A DNA stretch of 64,000 bases from an uncultured Alphaproteobacteria bacterium. Its GTDB lineage: Bacteria; Pseudomonadota; Alphaproteobacteria; RF32; CAG-239. A program made the translations under genes and the position numbers. The stretch lies in NCBI GenBank assembly GCA_944391485.1, contig CALXTQ010000020.1, positions 1,849-65,848 of the forward strand, given 5' to 3'. Shown one piece after another: positions 6,538 to 34,500 of the stretch (within the stretch, counting starts at the first letter, position 1; every line of letters starts with the position of its first letter). The notes beneath the pieces were generated by a model. The model ran no database searches. It had not been told where the DNA came from and saw only the letters and a list, made by a program, of their open reading frames with translations.

Positions 6538-6951
6538 ATGAGCAAAAGTAAAGCTACATTATCTATTACCGAACGTCTATTATTGGACTTCATTAAATAT
6601 AAAACAAACAACAATCATAAATTCTTTATGGGGAATGATAAAATCGCCATGGCCTTGGGATTAACGGTAAATTCCGCCAAAGTGATGATAAACGGACTTA
6701 TCCGTGAAGGGTATCTTATCAAATCAATGGATACCCACGGCCGCAGAATATTAGAATTATCCGACAAACCATACTTAACCATCGCTTGTGTTGATTTAAG
6801 CAACGTTGATAAACGCATTATATTGCAAGAAGCCCTGAACTTTCAACGAGACGCCGAATACTTCCAAAAACAATACGAGTTTGAAAAAGCACGAGCCGAC
6901 AGACTTCTTGCCGAACTAACACAGATAAAGCTAATGTATAAAGCTAAGTAA
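6538..6951 (+). CDS. Small winged-helix DNA-binding protein (137 aa) with a C-terminal coiled coil; candidate iteron/operator-binding protein
   Basis: RBS AAGGAG 5 nt upstream. HTH-like segment IAMALGLTVNSAKVMINGLIREGYLIKSMDTHGRRILEL. The C-terminus is a charged helix (QKQYEFEKARADRLLAELTQIK). It lies directly downstream of the repeat array. Confidence 0.55.
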   Translation: MSKSKATLSITERLLLDFIKYKTNNNHKFFMGNDKIAMALGLTVNSAKVMINGLIREGYLIKSMDTHGRRILELSDKPYLTIACVDLSNVDKRIILQEALNFQRDAEYFQKQYEFEKARADRLLAELTQIKLMYKAK

Positions 6952-10188: not shown

Positions 10189-11619
10189 TTACTTCCCTTC
10201 CATTTCCTTGGCTAGTTCGGAAACGAGTTTCCAGTTCTGGCTTTTGTAAGCTTCTAACAAGGGGAGATAGTAGCGAGAATTTTTGCCTTCTCCTATATAT
10301 GGTATTCTTCTGACGCCGCCGGCTTTATCTTCTTTTCGCATAGCCAGCAAGGTTGTATAAGATATGCCTAAAAATGCCGCGGTTTGTTTAATATTCAACC
10401 AATTTGAACGAGCGGCAATATCAAATGCTTCTTGTTTTTTAGCACTATCAAGGTCATTTAAATAAAACTCTGATAATTCTGCGGCGTAATCACTAAACCC
10501 ACTACTCTCTAATGCCTTTACAAAGGAGCGAATAGAATTACTCATAGTTTTAACAACATTTGCAGAAAATACAATCTGCTTGAAATTAACATGTTTTGTA
10601 AATGTAATATTCTTAACTCTGAGTTCATTCAAAAATATAACATTAACAATCTGACCATAATGAAAGTTTACATCAGAAAAGGATACTTTACCCCCAAAAA
10701 TTGTATTGCTAAATATAATTTTCAATTTAGATATATTAGATAATAAAAAATTTGCCTGTTCTGAAAAAGTACAATTTCTTAAAATAAGAGCTGAATAACA
10801 CCCTTTTTGTATTTTATCAATCTCAAAATTACCATTGAATATACAGTTTTCAAACTTTAACAAACTTATTACTGTTTGAAAATTTCTATTTAATCCCGTT
10901 TTCCAATAACTAACCCGACAATTAAAAATGCAATTTTTGAACATAAATGATTTATCTCTTAAAAATAAACGTTCAGCTCCGCTGAAAGCACAATTCTCAA
11001 AAATTACTGTTCTGATATCTACATAATCAATAAATCTGAAAAGATTATCATTTTCTTCACTTGAAGAAATATTCATATTTTTCAAATGCAAGCACAAATT
11101 ATTAAATCCTAATGATTTTAATTCTATATCAGAAAAAGGAGGTTCAAAAACAGACCGAACCTCTTGCTCTGCAAAACAATACTCTTCCTCAAAGTTTTCC
11201 AAAAACTTTTTTAATTTAGCTTCATCCTTTACTATAAAATTACGATCATATCCTCTTTGGGCGTATAACTTTACTTTCTCGGACGGCAAATCAGGTTGTT
11301 TTAAATTGTAATTGAATATTGTCGCTAAAATGCACAAGAATGACTTAAGTGCATCTGCATAGTAAGGGTAATATTGGTCTAAATATTCATTTTTTACCTT
11401 TATTGGAGCTTCTTTTTTAGAAGGAAGGCTAAAAAGAAAATTTTTTACTGATTGAAAAACTTTATAATTATTTCCTGTTTCTTTTATATACTCATCATAT
11501 TGAGCCATTAAATCCTTGATGGAACTACCGGCATTTTCAATATCCGGTTCTCTTAATCTTAAAAAAACATCTGACAATCTCATCATATACAGTAGGCAAA
11601 ATTCTTTAAGCTGTTCCAT
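10189..11619 (-). CDS. Pentapeptide-repeat-like protein with a C-terminal excisionase/MerR-type HTH (HTH_17-like)
   Basis: The central region has degenerate A(D/N)(L/F)xx-type repeats (ENCAFSGAERLFLRDKSFMFKNCIFNCRVSYW...FENCIFNGNFEID...LRNCTFSEQANFLLSNISKLKIIFSNTIFGGKVSFSDVNFHYG). The C-terminus is NIKQTAAFLGISYTTLLAMRKEDKAGGVRRIPYIGEGKNSRYYL. Confidence 0.5.
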   Translation of the reverse strand: MEQLKEFCLLYMMRLSDVFLRLREPDIENAGSSIKDLMAQYDEYIKETGNNYKVFQSVKNFLFSLPSKKEAPIKVKNEYLDQYYPYYADALKSFLCILATIFNYNLKQPDLPSEKVKLYAQRGYDRNFIVKDEAKLKKFLENFEEEYCFAEQEVRSVFEPPFSDIELKSLGFNNLCLHLKNMNISSSEENDNLFRFIDYVDIRTVIFENCAFSGAERLFLRDKSFMFKNCIFNCRVSYWKTGLNRNFQTVISLLKFENCIFNGNFEIDKIQKGCYSALILRNCTFSEQANFLLSNISKLKIIFSNTIFGGKVSFSDVNFHYGQIVNVIFLNELRVKNITFTKHVNFKQIVFSANVVKTMSNSIRSFVKALESSGFSDYAAELSEFYLNDLDSAKKQEAFDIAARSNWLNIKQTAAFLGISYTTLLAMRKEDKAGGVRRIPYIGEGKNSRYYLPLLEAYKSQNWKLVSELAKEMEGK

Positions 11620-12380: not shown

Positions 12381-12884
12381 ATGCAAAACTTTTTGAACAA
12401 ATATAATGCCGTAAAGCTTGAAAACACTCAAGACGAAGGCAAATTAACCCTTGATAGTAGCAAAAAACGTATCTTAAAAATGCTTGATGAGAATATGAAA
12501 CACATCAAAAACAACTCTTGGAACATTAAAAACCGTATGAACAAGTTGATTGTTGATACCGAAACCAATTCAATCTTTACTTTGCGTTTAGGGGGCAAGA
12601 AAATAATCAAATATTCTCTTTATCTCTTAAATGACCGAGAAAAGCTCAATTTCTTGTCTGATTTTTACGATAGCATTGTCAATAATGAGTTTGATACCGA
12701 GATTTTGAATTTCATATCTCAAGAACTTGAAAACTCACAAAAACGCAGAAAAGCTTCTTTGGAACGTCGTAAACTCAAAAAGCAACAAGAAAAGGAAGAA
12801 GCAACCAAACGCACAATTGCAGCAGCCAGTTCTTTGATTGAAGAAACAATGTCGCAATCTCTGCCGCGTTACGCTCAGTTGTAG
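12381..12884 (+). CDS. Hypothetical protein (167 aa) with a Lys/Arg/Glu-rich C-terminal tail
   Basis: RBS AAAGGAAA before the ATG. An intrinsic terminator follows. No recognisable domain. Confidence 0.45.
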   Translation: MQNFLNKYNAVKLENTQDEGKLTLDSSKKRILKMLDENMKHIKNNSWNIKNRMNKLIVDTETNSIFTLRLGGKKIIKYSLYLLNDREKLNFLSDFYDSIVNNEFDTEILNFISQELENSQKRRKASLERRKLKKQQEKEEATKRTIAAASSLIEETMSQSLPRYAQL

Positions 12885-12907: not shown

Positions 12908-12930
12908 GGAGGCTTTTGCCTCCTTTATCT
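12908..12930. terminator. Bidirectional intrinsic terminator between convergent genes
   Basis: GGAGGC-TTTT-GCCTCC hairpin (12908-12923) flanked by an A-run upstream and TTTATCTTTAT downstream. Confidence 0.65.
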
Positions 12931-12951
12931 TTATAAAATAGATACTAAAAT

Positions 12952-13458
12952 CTATAACGATTTTAGTACCCGCCAATCAATTTTCCAAATAAACCCTAGA
13001 ACAAATAATAAAGGATAGATCATTGCATATACATAATCATAAAGTGTATTATAAACACTATATTTCAATAAAATGACACAAGCTAAACCACCTACAACAA
13101 ATGGTAATACTATATTTAATTTTCTTACATTTATTATATAGGATAAGCGATACATGCTTATAATATGGTTTATTTCAATAAATTTATTATATTCATCAGT
13201 TATACTGTTTAAATCGTGCAAATATACCAGTAAATTGCGATACCAGACAATCGATAAAGTATATACTAGCATCACTATATAATATAAGTAATTGAAATTT
13301 TCTGATGGCTTAACATCATTAGAATAAAGCAATATCGCTATGCCAACTATTGAAGAACATAACGCACTATAATATTTATGAACGCTAGATATTAAACCAT
13401 ATATGTCTTTGATTTGCTCATTTAATATATTAAATTGATCTAAAATGCTTATTTTCAT
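12952..13458 (-). CDS. Small integral membrane protein (168 aa from MKISILD)
   Basis: Several hydrophobic spans (IVGIAILLYS..., YLYYIVMLVYTLSIVWY, IVLPFVVGGLACVILL, AMIYPLLFVLGFIW). AGAGGA lies upstream of ATG 13456-13458. It sits directly downstream of the Fic gene; the longer track ORF would overlap that gene. Confidence 0.45.
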   Translation of the reverse strand: MKISILDQFNILNEQIKDIYGLISSVHKYYSALCSSIVGIAILLYSNDVKPSENFNYLYYIVMLVYTLSIVWYRNLLVYLHDLNSITDEYNKFIEINHIISMYRLSYIINVRKLNIVLPFVVGGLACVILLKYSVYNTLYDYVYAMIYPLLFVLGFIWKIDWRVLKSL

Positions 13459-13514
13459 AACATTACTATCCTCTTTACAAAACATAATTTTTTCTTCAAG
13501 CAATACACGTCCGA

Positions 13515-14453
13515 CTATTCCATCATGATTTTCTGAACTTCGGCTTTTTGTTCTTGGGCGAACAAGGCATAGCCGGACGGGGTAAATGCTATTGGCCTTA
13601 ATTTTCCTTCTTTCATCCAATAACGAATGGTTGAAGTTGGAACATCGCACAACTTGGCAAATTTAGATATGGTAAGCAATGATTTATTAGGTTCTTGCTT
13701 ATGAACATCCAACAAATCAATCATCATTTTAAGCGAACGATTCAATGCCGAAAGCATAAATTTATAATAAGGCTCGCTATTCTCCCTTGTTTGATATGTT
13801 TCCAAAGCATTCAAATATCTCTTTCTATCAATAGGACGAATGATTATCGGAGCGTATCCGCTTTCAAGCAACATACTGTTAAGCAACAACCTTGCCGTAC
13901 GACCGTTACCATCAATAAATGGATGGATTGTTACCAAACGATAATGAGCTTCAATCGCTTTGAGCAGCATATCATCTTCTTTTTGCAACAACCAAGCAGA
14001 AAACTCTTTCATCAAATCAGGAACTTTAAGCGGGTTTGGAAGAATTGTTTGTGAACCGGATATTCTCACTCGGACACTCCGATAAAAACCGGCATTACCA
14101 TCATCAATGCCCGATAAAATAATTTTGTGTATCTGCAAGATATAGTTTTCATCAATTTTAACCGCCTTGGCCGCAGATGTTTGAATAAATTCAAAGGCTT
14201 TTGCATGGTTAATTGCTTCCAGATAATCATTGATAGGCTTTGCTCCGGAGGTAATTCTTTCTTCAATGGCCATCTCAGTTTCTTTTCGGGTTAAGGTATT
14301 ACCCTCAATCGCATTGGAAGTATAAGCAAGCTCTGTTTTCAGCCATTTATCAAGAACCTTTTGATTATCCTTATTTTTCAATAGCTTTTGCAAAATAGCT
14401 TTATTTTCTTCTATTTTTGATCTTATTTCCTGCATGACGGCCTCATACTTCAT
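13515..14453 (-). CDS. fic: Fic-family protein (AMPylase-type) with an N-terminal inhibitory-helix motif and a C-terminal HTH
   Basis: Canonical Fic motif HPFIDGNGRTARLL. N-terminal TSNAIEGNT matches the (S/T)xxxE(G/N) auto-inhibition motif. The C-terminus is PTSTIRYWMKEGKLRPIAFTPSGYALF (MerR/Xis-like HTH). Confidence 0.9.
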   Translation of the reverse strand: MKYEAVMQEIRSKIEENKAILQKLLKNKDNQKVLDKWLKTELAYTSNAIEGNTLTRKETEMAIEERITSGAKPINDYLEAINHAKAFEFIQTSAAKAVKIDENYILQIHKIILSGIDDGNAGFYRSVRVRISGSQTILPNPLKVPDLMKEFSAWLLQKEDDMLLKAIEAHYRLVTIHPFIDGNGRTARLLLNSMLLESGYAPIIIRPIDRKRYLNALETYQTRENSEPYYKFMLSALNRSLKMMIDLLDVHKQEPNKSLLTISKFAKLCDVPTSTIRYWMKEGKLRPIAFTPSGYALFAQEQKAEVQKIMME

Positions 14454-14470
14454 GGTTTTTATATTTATAA

Positions 14471-14499
14471 ACTATAAACCTCAAAGTCCCAAATGTCAA
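14471..14499 (-). promoter_or_regulatory. Predicted sigma70 promoter for the Fic gene at 13515-14453
   Basis: On the minus strand: TTGACA (14499-14494), 17-nt spacer, TATAGT (14476-14471). This is about 20 nt upstream of the ATG. Confidence 0.45.
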
Positions 14500-14590
14500 T
14501 CAATACTTCATAGTTGCATAAAAATAAAAGTATGAAGTTTATTGATAATGAAAAATCTATATTTCTGTTACCATTTTCCCGAGCAATACA

Positions 14591-14699
14591 AAATCCTTCT
14601 TGACTATAGAAACCGGTGGGGTATGGTGGTTATAAAATAATTAAAAGGGTGAGACAGTTGGGTGTGTTTCAGAGTTCGGCAAAAACCGCACATCCAGAA
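14591..14699. repeat. Conserved element, copy 1 (upstream of Fic gene 1). Weaker similarity continues to about 14885
   Basis: AAATCCTTCTTGACTATAGAAACCGGTGGGGTATGGTGGTTATAAAATAATTAAAAGGGTGAGACAGTTGGGTGTGTTT..AAAAACCGC is about 93% identical to 16040-16138. Confidence 0.8.
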
Positions 14700-14888
14700 G
14701 AAAAAATCATGCTTTTTCATGAGGTTGGCTTTTGTAAGACTACGGCTTCCAGCCTTAGTGTTTCAAAGTGTTCTTAAAAGCATGTTTCTGCAGCAAAATG
14801 TTCTTTTTTCTTACCGGTGCTCTTGAGCTAATTTTGCATATTTTTCTTATATTTTGTTTACTTGTCTTAAAGTGCTTCATTTATCAAT

Positions 14889-15929
14889 TTACAACACTTC
14901 CCAATAACCACCTTTAGCAGCTCCGATACGACGTATTTTGTTTTCTTTTTTCAAGGTTTCTAAATGCCATTTTATGCTATCCTCTGTCGTATTAAGGCGT
15001 TTGGCAAGTTCTTTTCTGCTGGCTTTGGGATCAATACGTAACACATCAAGAATTTTCTGGGTGGTTTTCTGGGTGGAATTTGGACTTTTCTGGGTGGTTT
15101 TCTGGGGGGAAATATCTTTAATTTGCATTTCTCTGTTATCCAACAGATTATTTTCTCCCAATAACAAATTACCAAAAAACTTATTCAAATACTCCATTGT
15201 ATATGGAATATCCTTTTCCAAATTTTGATAATTTGCTCTCACCAACGCATTTCTGAAATATTTCGAATGTTTTTCAAATAAATCATTATTTGTCTTAAAA
15301 CCAAGAGTATATAAATATTTAATTGTAAAAACTGCTGTGGCTCTGGTATTTCCTTCACCAAACGGATGTATCTGCCATATACCGGAAATAAATTTAGCTA
15401 AATGAGCAACTTTTTCAGCTTTACTTAATCCCATATAATTAAAGTTTTTCTCAGTTTGAAAATCATAATCCAACGTTTCTTTAAGACTATCTGAACGTCC
15501 GTATATAACCGTATCTCCATTCAAAATAGGTTCATCTTTGGTAATGTCATATGTTCGTAACTTTCCGGCGATTTCATCATCAAATATGCCACTAAATAAG
15601 GCTTTATGAATAGAAATATATTCCATCGGACTAAAAGAAAAAGTATGTGTGCTTAATATTTTAGCTATGCGAGCGGAAACTTCATCGGCTTCTTTCTCTC
15701 CTTGTTCTTTTAGCGTTATTGCCGGATTTATCTTATAATATTGTTTTACTTGCTCGGCAGCTTCATCAATAGATATCTTACCTTCAATATTATCTTTGGC
15801 AACTTCTATCAAATATTTTGACGGTAACAATCCGTCTACCTGTTGCAAACCAATGGCAACGCCCCAATTTTCTGCTTTTTTTTGCTTATCTGGTTCGCCT
15901 TGTTTTTTATATTCTTCAAAATCGCTCAT
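14889..15929 (-). CDS. Fic/Doc-family protein with a non-canonical motif and a C-terminal winged-helix domain
   Basis: Fic-like motif HPFGEGNTRATAV (HPFxEGN present; G->T and the second Arg absent compared with HPFx[DE]GNGRxxR). Low-complexity QKTTQKSPNSTQKTTQK repeat. C-terminal wHTH ASRKELAKRLNTTEDSIKWHLETLKKENKIRRIG. Confidence 0.8.
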   Translation of the reverse strand: MSDFEEYKKQGEPDKQKKAENWGVAIGLQQVDGLLPSKYLIEVAKDNIEGKISIDEAAEQVKQYYKINPAITLKEQGEKEADEVSARIAKILSTHTFSFSPMEYISIHKALFSGIFDDEIAGKLRTYDITKDEPILNGDTVIYGRSDSLKETLDYDFQTEKNFNYMGLSKAEKVAHLAKFISGIWQIHPFGEGNTRATAVFTIKYLYTLGFKTNNDLFEKHSKYFRNALVRANYQNLEKDIPYTMEYLNKFFGNLLLGENNLLDNREMQIKDISPQKTTQKSPNSTQKTTQKILDVLRIDPKASRKELAKRLNTTEDSIKWHLETLKKENKIRRIGAAKGGYWEVL

Positions 15930-15986
15930 TTTTAACCCAAACTTTACATTGATTCTTGGCTATTATTATGTCTTCTAATTTCTAAA

Positions 15987-16015
15987 ATTATAGTAAAGAT
16001 TATATTTTATCTCAA
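15987..16015 (-). promoter_or_regulatory. Predicted sigma70 promoter for the Fic gene at 14889-15929
   Basis: On the minus strand: TTGAGA (16015-16010), 17-nt spacer, TATAAT (15992-15987). This is about 55 nt upstream of the ATG at 15929. Confidence 0.45.
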
Positions 16016-16039
16016 TCTGTAATTTATCACATCCTAAAA

Positions 16040-16138
16040 AAATCCTTCTTGACTATAGAAACCGGTGGGGTATGGTAGTTATAAATCAATTAAAAGGGTG
16101 AGACAGTTAGGTGTGTTTTAAAGTTCGGAAAAACCGCC
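16040..16138. repeat. Conserved element, copy 2 (upstream of Fic gene 2). Weaker similarity continues to about 16380
   Basis: About 93% identical to 14591-14699, in the same orientation. Confidence 0.8.
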
Positions 16139-16580
16139 CTTTAGCCTGAAAAAATGGCGTTTTTTCATTGACTTGGATTTTTGGGTTTTATGCCTTCCAG
16201 CCACCCCAGCCACAGTTCAAAAATCGTCAGAAATGGCGATTTTTTCTTTATAAATCAACAACTTAACCGAGTCCGAAAATTTATATCATTACAGGCTTAA
16301 ATATGAATCATCTTCGGACTACTTTTTATGACTTTCATTAAAAATCAATAACTTAACTAAAGGCATTCTTTCATAGCCTTTTGGGATTATCATTTATCCA
16401 AAGCCGGATTTGAAGCCTGCCTACAATAAAAGTTTTTGACGTTACCGACGATTTATTTTGGCTCCGGCGGCTAGCCCCAGAGGTTACAGCATACGGCTCT
16501 GGTCTGCTGGTTGTCGCACCTGTACTCTCCGGTCGGGATATGCCTATCCTCTGCCACACATCGGCTAAGCTTAAAAATGA

Positions 16581-17069
16581 TTAGTCAAAATTGAAGGAAC
16601 CCTTTACGTGCAAGCTTAAAATAGATGTATGCGTTTTTAGTAGATATTTTAACTTCTTTTCCAACTTACCGAGAAGTTGTAAACCTAATCTATATGCAAA
16701 TCTTGTGGTTTGCATTTGGTCATTGTAAAATTCTTTACTAGATGTTGCTAAAAAGCTATCTACACCATCTTTATTAATTCTTGCATCTTCTGCATAGCAC
16801 TTACATTGAATTGCCCAATACTCATTATCTGTTGTTAAAGCAACCAAATCTATACCTGTGTCTTTACCACTAAAATCTTTTCTATATGGAAAATCCTCCC
16901 AAAGCCAAATTTCTTTGAATTTTCCTGTATATTTAGGAGTAATCATCAAATATGATTTCATTAATCTTTCAAATCTTGTGCCTTTATCTCTTTCTGAAAA
17001 AGACTCATTTCTAAATTTATTTAAAACGTCAGTAAAAGATAAAATTGGTGCAGACATCAGAATCTCCAT
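16581..17069 (-). pseudogene. Truncated Mrr-type (PD-(D/E)xK, Mrr_cat-like) restriction endonuclease domain gene (162 aa; C-terminal partner domain missing)
   Basis: Motifs FERLMKSYL...GKDTGIDLVAL...YWAIQCKCY (D...QxK Mrr_cat signature). This domain is normally the N-terminus of a much larger helicase/restriction protein. Here the ORF stops and is followed by an odd GC-rich non-coding segment. Confidence 0.5.
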
Positions 17070-17170
17070 AGATGGTTGATTAACTTAATCAAACACTTAA
17101 AAGAGTTCAAAAAGATGGTGCTGATGATAGAGAAGATGTAAATATCGTGCATATAATTAAATACTATATT

Positions 17171-27075: not shown

Positions 27076-27483
27076 CTAAAACGAGGTCGTTTCAATTATC
27101 ATTTTTGAGCCCGGAAACCCGAATAGAAGTTGATCTTCGCAGGGACAAACCCTTCCAGTTCTTCCGCAGGTGATTAAACCTCTCAGTACAAAAGGCTTTT
27201 GGCTGTATTTCAGCCCCGCACCGTTATGATTGTTAAGGGTTTTCTGCTTTTGACATTGCTCCCACAGCTCTTGCGAAATCAGCGGCGGATAAACATGTTT
27301 AATAATTCCTCTTTTGGTTTTCATCTCACCATAATGAAAGGGATTGTCCAATATATAATAGATGCTGGAATTGACATGCCACCGGCGGGTGTCGGGTTTT
27401 ATAATTGCGTATTTAAGGGAATAGTGAATTTTGATGAAAGTATTGTTCCGGAAAAGAGCGTGTTGGAATATTTTACCATGCAA
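27076..27483 (-). pseudogene. 3' fragment of a large serine recombinase gene (recombinase domain plus zinc-ribbon region only)
   Basis: LDNPFHYGEM...PPLISQELWEQCQ...FVLRGLITCGRTGRV resembles the recombinase/Zn-ribbon region of large serine recombinases. The N-terminal catalytic resolvase domain is missing, and a perfect 15-bp inverted repeat (27492-27537) lies just upstream. Confidence 0.5.
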
Positions 27484-32969: not shown

Positions 32970-33083
32970 CTGAAAATCGGAGCAGCGACTCTGATTTTAC
33001 TTTATACCGGAGTTTACAAGGGAAACGACCTTCCCGGCAGCCTGCGGAGATGTCGGGTCTCCGCATCTACGAGAAGAATATCA

Positions 33084-33908
33084 CTATAAACCCAAACTTC
33101 TTACGCTTACTTTCATGGATATTTTATGTTTTTCTTTCGGCTTCAGGCTAATGAAAGAATCTCCCTGATTGGCCGGTTCGACGCAGATAAATTTTTTATA
33201 TTGTCCCGGACTCATTTCCGCCAGATCTTTGTTCGGGTTCCACACGACCGTTGTGTTTGAACCGCTTTTCTCAACAGATATAATGCGTTTTAATACCGGA
33301 TCCACTATTTCTACGGTTCCGGTATGGTTTATAAACGCCGCATCAAACTCGCCTCTGATTTTCAAATTCTGCTCCAAATCATATGTCTTTCCGTCTAACG
33401 AGCTTTTGTACTGATGACCGGACAACCCCCGCAACTCGACTTCATCAATTGAACCAATGTTAAAATAAGCATGCAGAGCCTCGCTGAACCTAAAAGTCTC
33501 GTCGCCGTTGTTGACAGTCTCAAGGCAGCACTCGAGCACATCCGTAATTTTGATGAAAAACGCCGCCGACACGTCAATGCCGAATTTTGCGTCAGGAACC
33601 AGAGAAAACGCAGCTTCTATTCTGCTCTCGTCAACAGAAACGTTTTTTAAATCCCAATTTGAGAGTCTTGCAAAACCATGGCGCGGAAAATGACTGTTTA
33701 GGGCTTCTTCCGCAAAACGCGGCCAGCAAACCGGGATACCGCCACGGATTGCGTGGATCCGGTCAAATTTGTTAAATTCTCCAAGCCAGAAGATATCCTG
33801 CCGTTCTTTTCCGGGACGATAAGAAACAATATTGGCCCCCCAGGGAGAAATTTTGCATTCGGCCAGATTATTGCTCAGATTGATAAAACCGTTTTCATTC
33901 ATATCCAT
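33084..33908 (-). CDS. Aldose 1-epimerase family protein (glucose-6-phosphate 1-epimerase, YeaD-like)
   Basis: Sequence features typical of the D-hexose-6-phosphate mutarotase family (GGIPVCWPRF, ALHAYFNIG). The start is placed at MDMNENG to avoid overlapping the NUDIX gene. Confidence 0.7.
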   Translation of the reverse strand: MDMNENGFINLSNNLAECKISPWGANIVSYRPGKERQDIFWLGEFNKFDRIHAIRGGIPVCWPRFAEEALNSHFPRHGFARLSNWDLKNVSVDESRIEAAFSLVPDAKFGIDVSAAFFIKITDVLECCLETVNNGDETFRFSEALHAYFNIGSIDEVELRGLSGHQYKSSLDGKTYDLEQNLKIRGEFDAAFINHTGTVEIVDPVLKRIISVEKSGSNTTVVWNPNKDLAEMSPGQYKKFICVEPANQGDSFISLKPKEKHKISMKVSVRSLGL

Positions 33909-33966
33909 TAACAGACATCTCCATTCTGATCTTGAAGCAAAATAGTTTGTTACAGAAATTGTTTTG

Positions 33967-34500
33967 TTAATCCAAGTCGATAATTTCCTTAATGTGGAAA
34001 TTATCGTCATAAATATAACGCCGTTTTACAAAGCGTCCGGCTAATATTTCCGGTAAAAAATTTTGATCAGCCTCACGCATTTCCCGATAGGGAATTTTGT
34101 CTTCGTCCTGCCAAAAAGCGTTTACCTCCGCCTCATTTTCCCTTATCGCGCCAGAAAATTCGGTGCTTTTGAAGACATGAACATAAAAATTAACGTGAGG
34201 AAACTCAATATACCCGACCTGCACGGGATTTTTGATTGTAATTCCCGTTTCCTCAAAAGTTTCTCTGATGACGCAGTCCTCCATCGTTTCTCCCGCTTCT
34301 TTTTTGCCGCCCGGAAAATTAATACACCCTTTATTAATGCCACGGTGGTGCCTTATCATTAAAAATTTATGATTTACCGTATCTTCGACGATAGACAACG
34401 AAGCATCTTTCCTATCTGTAACTTCCATAAAATCTGCGCCTCCTGTTTTTCTCTTTTCATTATCGGAAAATTGTACTCTTTTTTCTCTAAAAGGCAACAT
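33967..34500 (-). CDS. NUDIX hydrolase
   Basis: Nudix box GGKKEAGETMEDCVIRETFEETGI. Confidence 0.8.
   Translation of the reverse strand: MLPFREKRVQFSDNEKRKTGGADFMEVTDRKDASLSIVEDTVNHKFLMIRHHRGINKGCINFPGGKKEAGETMEDCVIRETFEETGITIKNPVQVGYIEFPHVNFYVHVFKSTEFSGAIRENEAEVNAFWQDEDKIPYREMREADQNFLPEILAGRFVKRRYIYDDNFHIKEIIDLD

Follow-up and report, generated by a model that had tools for sequence, protein, structure and literature searches.

The 64-kb window analysed here (the whole stretch of DNA from an uncultured Alphaproteobacteria bacterium, 64,000 nucleotides in length) carries two Fic-family genes, Fic1 and Fic2, on its minus strand, and upstream of each of them lies a copy of the same repeated element. 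This element and the units of DNA that it bounds are the subject of this work. A sequence-only reading of the window had described the two genes as encoding different Fic proteins with helix-turn-helix (HTH) domains, and this holds, with a Fic and a MerR HTH domain in one product versus a Fic and a winged HTH domain in the other and with the motifs that it had quoted (HPFIDGNGRTAR, SNAIEG and HPFGEGNTRATAV) present in the translations. The near-consensus promoter that it had assigned to each gene was found as well, in both cases a sigma-70-like site with 11 of 12 matching positions (TTGACA-17-TATAGT at 14499-14471 for Fic1 and TTGAGA-17-TATAAT at 16015-15987 for Fic2). Both promoters are outside the element, in the non-conserved stretch that separates it from the start codon. 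The flanking open reading frames (ORFs) are also present, namely an ORF of 167 amino acids (aa) at 12381-12884 and a membrane ORF (168 aa as called in the related locus L037).

To describe the element itself, a repeat search gave a direct repeat of 95 nt with 93% identity between 14590-14684 and 16039-16133, with a start-to-start spacing of 1449, and blastn extended the alignment to 144 nt at 83% identity (14590-14733 and 16039-16181). The repeat of about 93% that had been claimed upstream of both Fic genes is therefore real, but the weaker similarity said to reach about 200 bp further ends about 70 nt past the high-identity block, at 14754 and 16203. Both copies have the common end CTTCCAGCC (14746-14754 and 16195-16203), after which the alignment runs into unrelated DNA. 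The core of the element accordingly spans about 162 nt from ATCCTTCTTGAC to CTTCCAGCC and includes the invariant blocks AAAATCCTTCTTGACTATAGAAACC and ATTAAAAGGGTGAGACAGTT; its 3' half exists in two strongly diverged versions, which we call alpha (the sequence of copy 1) and beta (the sequence of copy 2). In those copies of other genomes that take the first position of an array, conservation reaches leftward to the equivalent of 14571. The window contains two copies, and sub-patterns of 28 and 31 nt occur exactly twice each (expected 0.00).

The distribution of the element was followed in two kinds of databases. An 18-mer scan of one genome per species (185,579 species genomes) with the pattern GAAACCGGTGGGGTATGG, which lies in the variable part of the element and under-samples its copies, returned 28 loci, four of them with the element and all four from metagenome-assembled genomes (MAGs) of uncultured gut Alphaproteobacteria, while about 24 were chance k-mer matches. 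From a 19-mer scan of metagenome contigs we obtained 14 loci, 13 of which are real and all from human gut; the remaining one (L046) is a chance match. All 17 true matches are found in one locus type, and no element was detected in viral contigs (two scans), a phage collection or a plasmid collection. This search answers the concern of the sequence-only reading that the element might be a generic repeat: with two copies in 64 kb and one locus type, a dispersed repeat resembling repetitive extragenic palindromes or miniature inverted-repeat transposable elements (REP/MITE-like) was ruled out. The Fic2 family is very large, and as the element is absent upstream of Fic2 homologues with 78-88% identity (L001-L008), it is not tied to this family. 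Within Fic2 itself we observed an internal tandem duplication of 33 nt (15050-15111), which corresponds to a repeated TTQK linker between the Fic and winged HTH domains.

Two features that had been overlooked in the sequence-only reading, the origin of the element's end and an integrase, give the key to the locus. Copy 2 terminates in the 17 nt TCCAGCCACCCCAGCCA, which exactly match the end of tRNA-Gln(UUG) and comprise the T-stem 3' strand, the acceptor 3' strand, the discriminator G and CCA. Identical 17 nt close the tRNA-Gln(ttg) genes that ARAGORN predicts in the related loci L041, L056 and L058. Behind the last copy of the element in L014 there is a terminator and then a 206-aa ORF; the latter contains a DUF6538 domain, the N-terminal mark of one class of tyrosine integrases. 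A terminator and integrase fragment of the L014 type are found in L056 and L058 too, preceded there by an intact tRNA-Gln(ttg) and not by the element. The complete arrangement is present in L041, where tRNA-Gln (6795-6869), a terminator, two copies of the motif GAGACAGT, the integrase ORF and a cargo fragment precede the element, behind which the 17 nt occur once more and thus flank the unit on both sides; beyond them come a different flank, serine-recombinase fragments and gpsA. The integrase ORF of L041 (4866-6686, minus strand) is full-length with 606 aa and possesses DUF6538 and Phage_integrase domains, and all other integrase copies adjacent to the element are fragments. As the far end of the L041 unit consists of the element with this 17-nt repeat, we read the element as the integrase-distal end of integrative islands specific for tRNA-Gln, joined to the attachment (att) core.

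A comparison of all 28 catalogued copies of the element, 26 in the fetched loci and two in the window, shows how these ends are arranged. An internal copy is followed by a constant tail that begins with TTAGTGTTTC, by the cargo and by the next copy. Where a copy is the last of its array, ACCCCAGCCA comes next and leads into a flank, of which there are at least seven unrelated kinds. The Fic2 unit of the window is also found in L038, L047, L048, L050 and L053; a pair of genes for an AAA_21 ATPase and an RloB-like protein forms the unit in L026 and L043 (about 2.3 kb), and L044 has both in series, with Fic2 stacked after AAA_21 and RloB. In L020, L037, L039, L049 and L052 the unit is missing and a single copy of the element is left. 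The break-points of the absence of the Fic2 unit are exactly at the repeat (14754 and 16203-16212). Further to the left, the block of membrane ORF and Fic1 (12927-14570) is replaced in L041, L043 and L051 by an unrelated 235-aa ORF without a Pfam match, with one break-point at the terminator of the 167-aa gene and the other where the element starts on its left side. Cassettes other than Fic that abut the element, which the sequence-only reading had proposed to look for, thus exist in the form of AAA_21 and RloB (with the element at the 3' end of RloB), the 235-aa ORF and the integrase unit. In L044 the Fic2 unit is near-identical to that of the window, although its host genes are only about 70% identical; this suggests a transfer between species, but a chimera of a low-coverage assembly is possible as well.

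The right-hand side of the array shows a similar pattern. In L049 the element and the 17-nt core are joined directly to what corresponds to window position 22801 onward, and as TCCAGCCA is located at 22793-22800, the DNA at 16213-22792 is an insertion bounded by the same short sequence. An 8-nt junction similar to the TCCAGCCA site is also found in L061, and before 22793 there is no third degenerate copy of the element beyond the 8-nt core. In L054 (5800-6000) we observed two tandem repeats of 57 nt that end in TCCACCA and are followed by TCCAGCCA. They lie upstream of a fragment of a related DUF6538 integrase, the leader of which carries GTGACACA twice, and the arrangement looks like a sister variant of the integrase/att system. 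The 8-nt junctions at 22793-22800, in L061 and in L054 may go back to slippage between two CCAGCCA repeats within the 17-nt core.

Taken together, we regard it as very probable that the locus has arisen by tandem accretion at a tRNA-Gln hotspot and that the element is an island end with an att core, and as such a recombination scar and not a regulatory leader. According to this model a family of integrative genomic islands would target the 3' end of tRNA-Gln(UUG) by means of a DUF6538-type tyrosine integrase of about 606 aa, and the element would combine the equivalent of the P' arm of a phage attachment site (attP; about 145 nt, integrase-distal) with the crossover core. Successive insertions at tRNA-Gln would stack the islands, with each junction retaining an island end and a fragment of the tRNA 3' end. 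A large island with type I restriction-modification (R-M) genes, a pentapeptide-HTH protein, the 167-aa ORF, the membrane ORF and Fic1 would close at copy 1, and a second, integrase-less mini-island of the kind known as cis-mobilizable elements (CIMEs) would occupy the pseudo-att site with which the first one ends. To the right of copy 2 and the 17-nt tRNA fragment there would be older, decayed islands. The mini-units may have been moved in trans by the integrase, now or formerly. In substance this upholds two of the possibilities raised in the sequence-only reading, gene cassettes sharing a recombination site and the footprint of tandem insertion, as there is a tRNA-Gln att core and as other genomes have the units, lack them, or show them exchanged or stacked. 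The coordinates of all features are collected in Table 1.

Table 1. Features of the element array and its proposed units in the 64-kb window.
Feature	Position	Strand	Remarks
Fic1	13515..14453	-	312 aa; Fic + MerR HTH; cargo at the right end of the larger left-hand island
Element copy 1 (internal copy)	14588..14754	+	putative island-end arm, terminates in the 7-nt core TCCAGCC
TGAGACAGTTGGGTG, candidate arm-type integrase-binding motif	14650..14664	+	copy 2: 16099-16113, one mismatch
7-nt core remnant TCCAGCC, end of copy 1	14748..14754	+	followed by the tail in place of ACCCCAGCCA
Tail, constant, 113 nt	14755..14868	+	follows every internal copy irrespective of cargo
Integrase-less unit, 1,449 bp	14755..16203	.	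tail + Fic2 with own promoter + core of the element
Fic2	14889..15929	-	346 aa; Fic + winged HTH; cargo of the mini-unit
Element copy 2 (last copy of the array)	16037..16212	+	same putative arm, terminates in the 17-nt tRNA-Gln 3' end
Putative att core / pseudo-tRNA TCCAGCCACCCCAGCCA	16196..16212	+	exact match to the last 17 nt of tRNA-Gln(UUG)
Older decayed island 'B1' (proposed)	16213..22792	.	opens with a terminator hairpin (16219-16244); absent in L049
Collapsed att remnant TCCAGCCA (putative)	22793..22800	+	far end of the B1 island

The terminators deserve a closer look, because they bear on a different explanation that had also been considered in the sequence-only reading, namely that the element is a small RNA gene or a cis-regulatory leader or operator which governs the adjacent toxin-like genes, either through a plus-strand transcript running from a TTGACT-16-TATGGT promoter to the downstream terminators or by acting on the divergent Fic promoters. 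Six of the at least seven unrelated flanks indeed open with a plus-strand hairpin and T-run terminator within a few to about 20 nt of the last copy, as does the window at 16219-16244, the promoter-like site is present in both copies (14600-14627 and 16049-16076), and the element stands upstream of Fic1, Fic2 and the 235-aa ORF. Yet the terminators are accounted for by the tRNA gene that they formerly served: the flanks once lay directly behind a functional tRNA-Gln, and no transcript of the element is required. The promoter-like site matches at only 9 of 12 positions, and such matches are as frequent as in shuffled sequences (9 found, 8.7 expected). Rfam gave no match at the gathering score in the whole window and only chance-level matches at E<=10 in the region 14300-16700, and the fold z-scores of -0.70 to +0.76 for both strands do not differ from shuffles. 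The conserved secondary structure that the sequence-only reading had wanted checked did not appear either, as RNAalifold found no compensatory pair among 22 distinct copies and the covariation term was 0. By inspection, no ORF is conserved between the two copies and reading frames are not kept. The element is further missing upstream of Fic2 homologues elsewhere, and it also adjoins the 3' end of RloB and a unit with an integrase. Both Fic promoters lie outside of it. In the model preferred here the element does nothing for Fic expression other than being located upstream of each gene's own promoter, and we consider a regulatory function very unlikely. A small RNA had been entertained as a candidate and was dropped once the tRNA gene accounted for the terminators and fold and covariation were null; a tRNA-like acceptor pairing of TGGGGT with ACCCCA was likewise rejected, as natural variants (TGAGAT) break it without compensation.

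A candidate for an integrase-binding site was found as well. The 15-nt word TGAGACAGTTGGGTG is common, in direct orientation, to the element and the integrase-proximal arm of L041, and none of 2000 shuffles gave a word as long. Just upstream of the integrase start, (C/G)TGAGACAGT occurs twice in L014, L041, L056 and L061. Adjoining tRNA-Gln in L060 there are two copies of GTGAGACAGT, next to an integrase fragment of about 70% identity and with the remainder of the arm being different. Following the lambda-integrase paradigm, the GAGACAGT motif may be an arm-type integrase-binding site on both arms, with strand exchange probably taking place in TCCAGCC. Core, TCCAGCC and tail add up to about 275 bp, which is the size of a full attP.

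Several observations weigh against the accretion model. ARAGORN found no tRNA or tmRNA gene in the 64-kb window and tblastn no homologue of the integrase, so that the active partners are seen only in related contigs. The large left island runs past the left end of the window, and a contig that overlaps this end and continues for 4.4 kb further left still does not reach an intact tRNA-Gln and integrase. The Fic2 unit has copies of the element on both sides and no recombinase, and at its left junction the identity to the tRNA is just 7 nt, the site consisting of TCCAGCC only and the tail being unlike the known proximal arm. When the tail was aligned with the integrase-proximal arm of L041 the score was 34, which is not significant (shuffles 23.7 +/- 4.5, maximum 40), and the tail does not contain GAGACAGT; the Fic2 unit may therefore no longer be a substrate of the integrase. 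The alpha and beta variants of the 3' half are found in either array position and beside either cargo, which indicates homologous recombination or gene conversion between copies. Finally, all data used for comparison are metagenome or MAG contigs, in which repeats can cause mis-joins, and L044 is of low coverage.

Some of these points would follow directly if the islands had the same origin at tRNA-Gln but RecA-type homologous recombination alone now accounted for the way in which Fic2 and AAA+RloB units are gained, lost, swapped and stacked. The repeats of about 160 bp and the shared tail would then be the substrate for unequal crossing-over or for exchange after DNA uptake, and the integrase would have been needed only for the original construction. 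Such a process predicts the precise loss of one repeat-to-repeat unit as seen in L020, L037, L049 and L052, it fits the shuffling of the 3'-half variants as well as of single-nucleotide variants in the 5' half among array positions and cargos, and it agrees with a tail that has neither an arm motif nor similarity to the integrase-proximal arm and with integrase copies beside the element that are fragmentary except in L041. It leaves unexplained how each unit first acquired a full island end and core, and why junctions with otherwise unrelated partners lie exactly at TCCAGCC(A) (22793-22800, L061 and L054); moreover, L041 shows that the population has an integrase of full length. Homologous recombination as the sole present mechanism is a serious possibility, even if we would not expect it to be the correct one.

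The opposite extreme would be that the units of tail, cargo and element are working cassettes in parallel to those of integrons, about 1.4-2.3 kb in size, each with a single toxin or defence function, with a complete attP of about 275 bp (element, TCCAGCC and tail) but without a recombinase of its own, the DUF6538 integrase acting in trans. They would be excised as circles and inserted at the pseudo-att site of a resident island, resulting in stackable and reorderable arrays which are exchanged between species. We think of this as a rather doubtful proposal. It would give rise to two junctions that the integrated state lacks, the beta-type element followed by the tail TTAGTGTTTC for the circular unit, and the alpha-type element followed by ACCCCAGCCA and CAGTTCAAAAATCG for the empty site. 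A true integron-like array, or an integrase-less attC cluster (CALIN) with the element as attC, can hardly be correct. Like integron cassettes the units are short, stackable and strain-variable, carry their own promoter and a single toxin or defence function and have a conserved repeat of about 160 bp between them. Unlike in integrons, the R''-L''/L'-R' inverted-repeat architecture of an attC hairpin is lacking (the repeat search listed no inverted repeat within the element, and shuffled sequences fold equally well), no IntI-type integrase is found, the associated recombinase being the DUF6538 tyrosine integrase beside a tRNA gene, and the repeat itself derives from an island end and ends in a tRNA 3' fragment. 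Resemblances to attC, Xer/dif and oriT sites were judged by eye and are unsupported.

Tandem accretion at a tRNA gene is in itself an already well-known kind of system. Both accretion and CIMEs have been described for elements related to ICESt1 and ICESt3 of Streptococcus thermophilus, as summarised in a review on integrative and mobilizable elements (PMC5704250, citing Pavlovic 2004 and Bellanger 2011). As is proposed for our case, islands are stacked there at one att site with the internal att sites kept, units without an integrase are still flanked by att sites and an incoming element can enter the attR of a resident one. The array described here differs from them in its target (tRNA-Gln), its host (uncultured gut Alphaproteobacteria) and its 606-aa DUF6538-type integrase, in a junction repeat of about 160 nt that consists of arm and core and not just of a short repeat of the target gene, and in very small units (1.4 kb, and about 2.3 kb for AAA+RloB) with a single toxin or defence function. 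Furthermore, the left junction retains 7 nt of the target, and the mobility of the units is putative. A second parallel are the genomic islands of Dehalococcoides that are specific for ssrA (PMC3146451). Multiple islands are located there in tandem downstream of one small-RNA gene, each is bounded, as here, by a direct repeat of the 3' end of this gene (about 20 bp) with an extra conserved motif just upstream, and some islands without integration genes have been proposed to be cis-mobilizable, which makes them similar to the mini-unit. They use the serine recombinase DsiB and a tmRNA gene and carry reductive dehalogenase cargo, in contrast to the tyrosine integrase, the tRNA-Gln and the Fic, R-M and AAA+RloB genes found here. 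With classical tRNA-targeting islands and prophages the system has in common, as seen in L041, an integrase beside an intact tRNA gene that regains its 3' end and terminator from the inserted element, and with lambda-like attP arms the 17-nt direct repeat at the far end, a motif on both arms and an attP size of about 275 bp. It differs in that the arm sites and the crossover are deduced and that the window contains only distal ends and decayed islands.

Some further observations concern the surroundings of the array. Low-G+C DNA continues to the right up to about 33-34 kb, where the G+C content changes from about 30% to about 50%; at this step (about 33000-34500) the low-G+C island DNA, more than 33 kb of it, comes to its right-hand end. 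Ankyrin-repeat genes and a gene for a class I lysyl-tRNA synthetase (20992-22635) belong to this DNA. To the right of copy 2 there is a G+C-rich segment of about 110 nt (16455-16570) in DNA of 30% G+C, just downstream of a truncated 162-aa Mrr_cat_2 ORF (16581-17069). The segment has no Rfam match and fold z-scores of -0.8 and -0.3, and it is 97.6% conserved in L045 and L053. For the Mrr fragment and for a 594-aa ORF no exact protein is on record. On the minus strand at 17171-19027 a 618-aa ORF fuses a core similar to class II aminoacyl-tRNA synthetases to a thymidylate kinase domain, and with a S51 peptidase and an AAA_28 protein as neighbours it may belong to a defence or nucleotide-metabolism module. 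Fragments of large serine recombinases (Recombinase domain) are found in the window at 27076-27483 (minus strand) and, in similar form, between the last element copy and gpsA in L041, L051 and L052; the tRNA-Gln hotspot thus seems to have served a second recombinase family too. On the left-hand side, the pentapeptide-repeat protein with a C-terminal HTH_17 domain (10189-11619, minus strand) adjoins hsdM. As it shares only its last approximately 245 nt with the 373-aa variant of L026, L037 and L051, the N-terminal part represents a further variable slot beside hsdM. The DNA directly left of the window (L059, 5424-9877) encodes an ankyrin protein, a DUF3768 protein, a Phage_integrase fragment and a 414-aa RVT_1 reverse transcriptase of either the retron or the group II intron type.

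In summary, the two Fic genes appear to have come as cargo with separate mobile units that accumulated in tandem at a tRNA-Gln hotspot, rather than to be co-regulated through a common leader. For gut Alphaproteobacteria that are known from metagenomes only, the analysis defines an integration hotspot (from tRNA-Gln to gpsA in one lineage) together with its integrase family and a likely arm motif, as well as a set of small, exchangeable toxin and defence modules that comprises Fic-HTH proteins, AAA+RloB and type I R-M genes. Should the mini-units indeed move in trans, they would represent a compact route for the shuffling of single defence genes that is independent of integrons.

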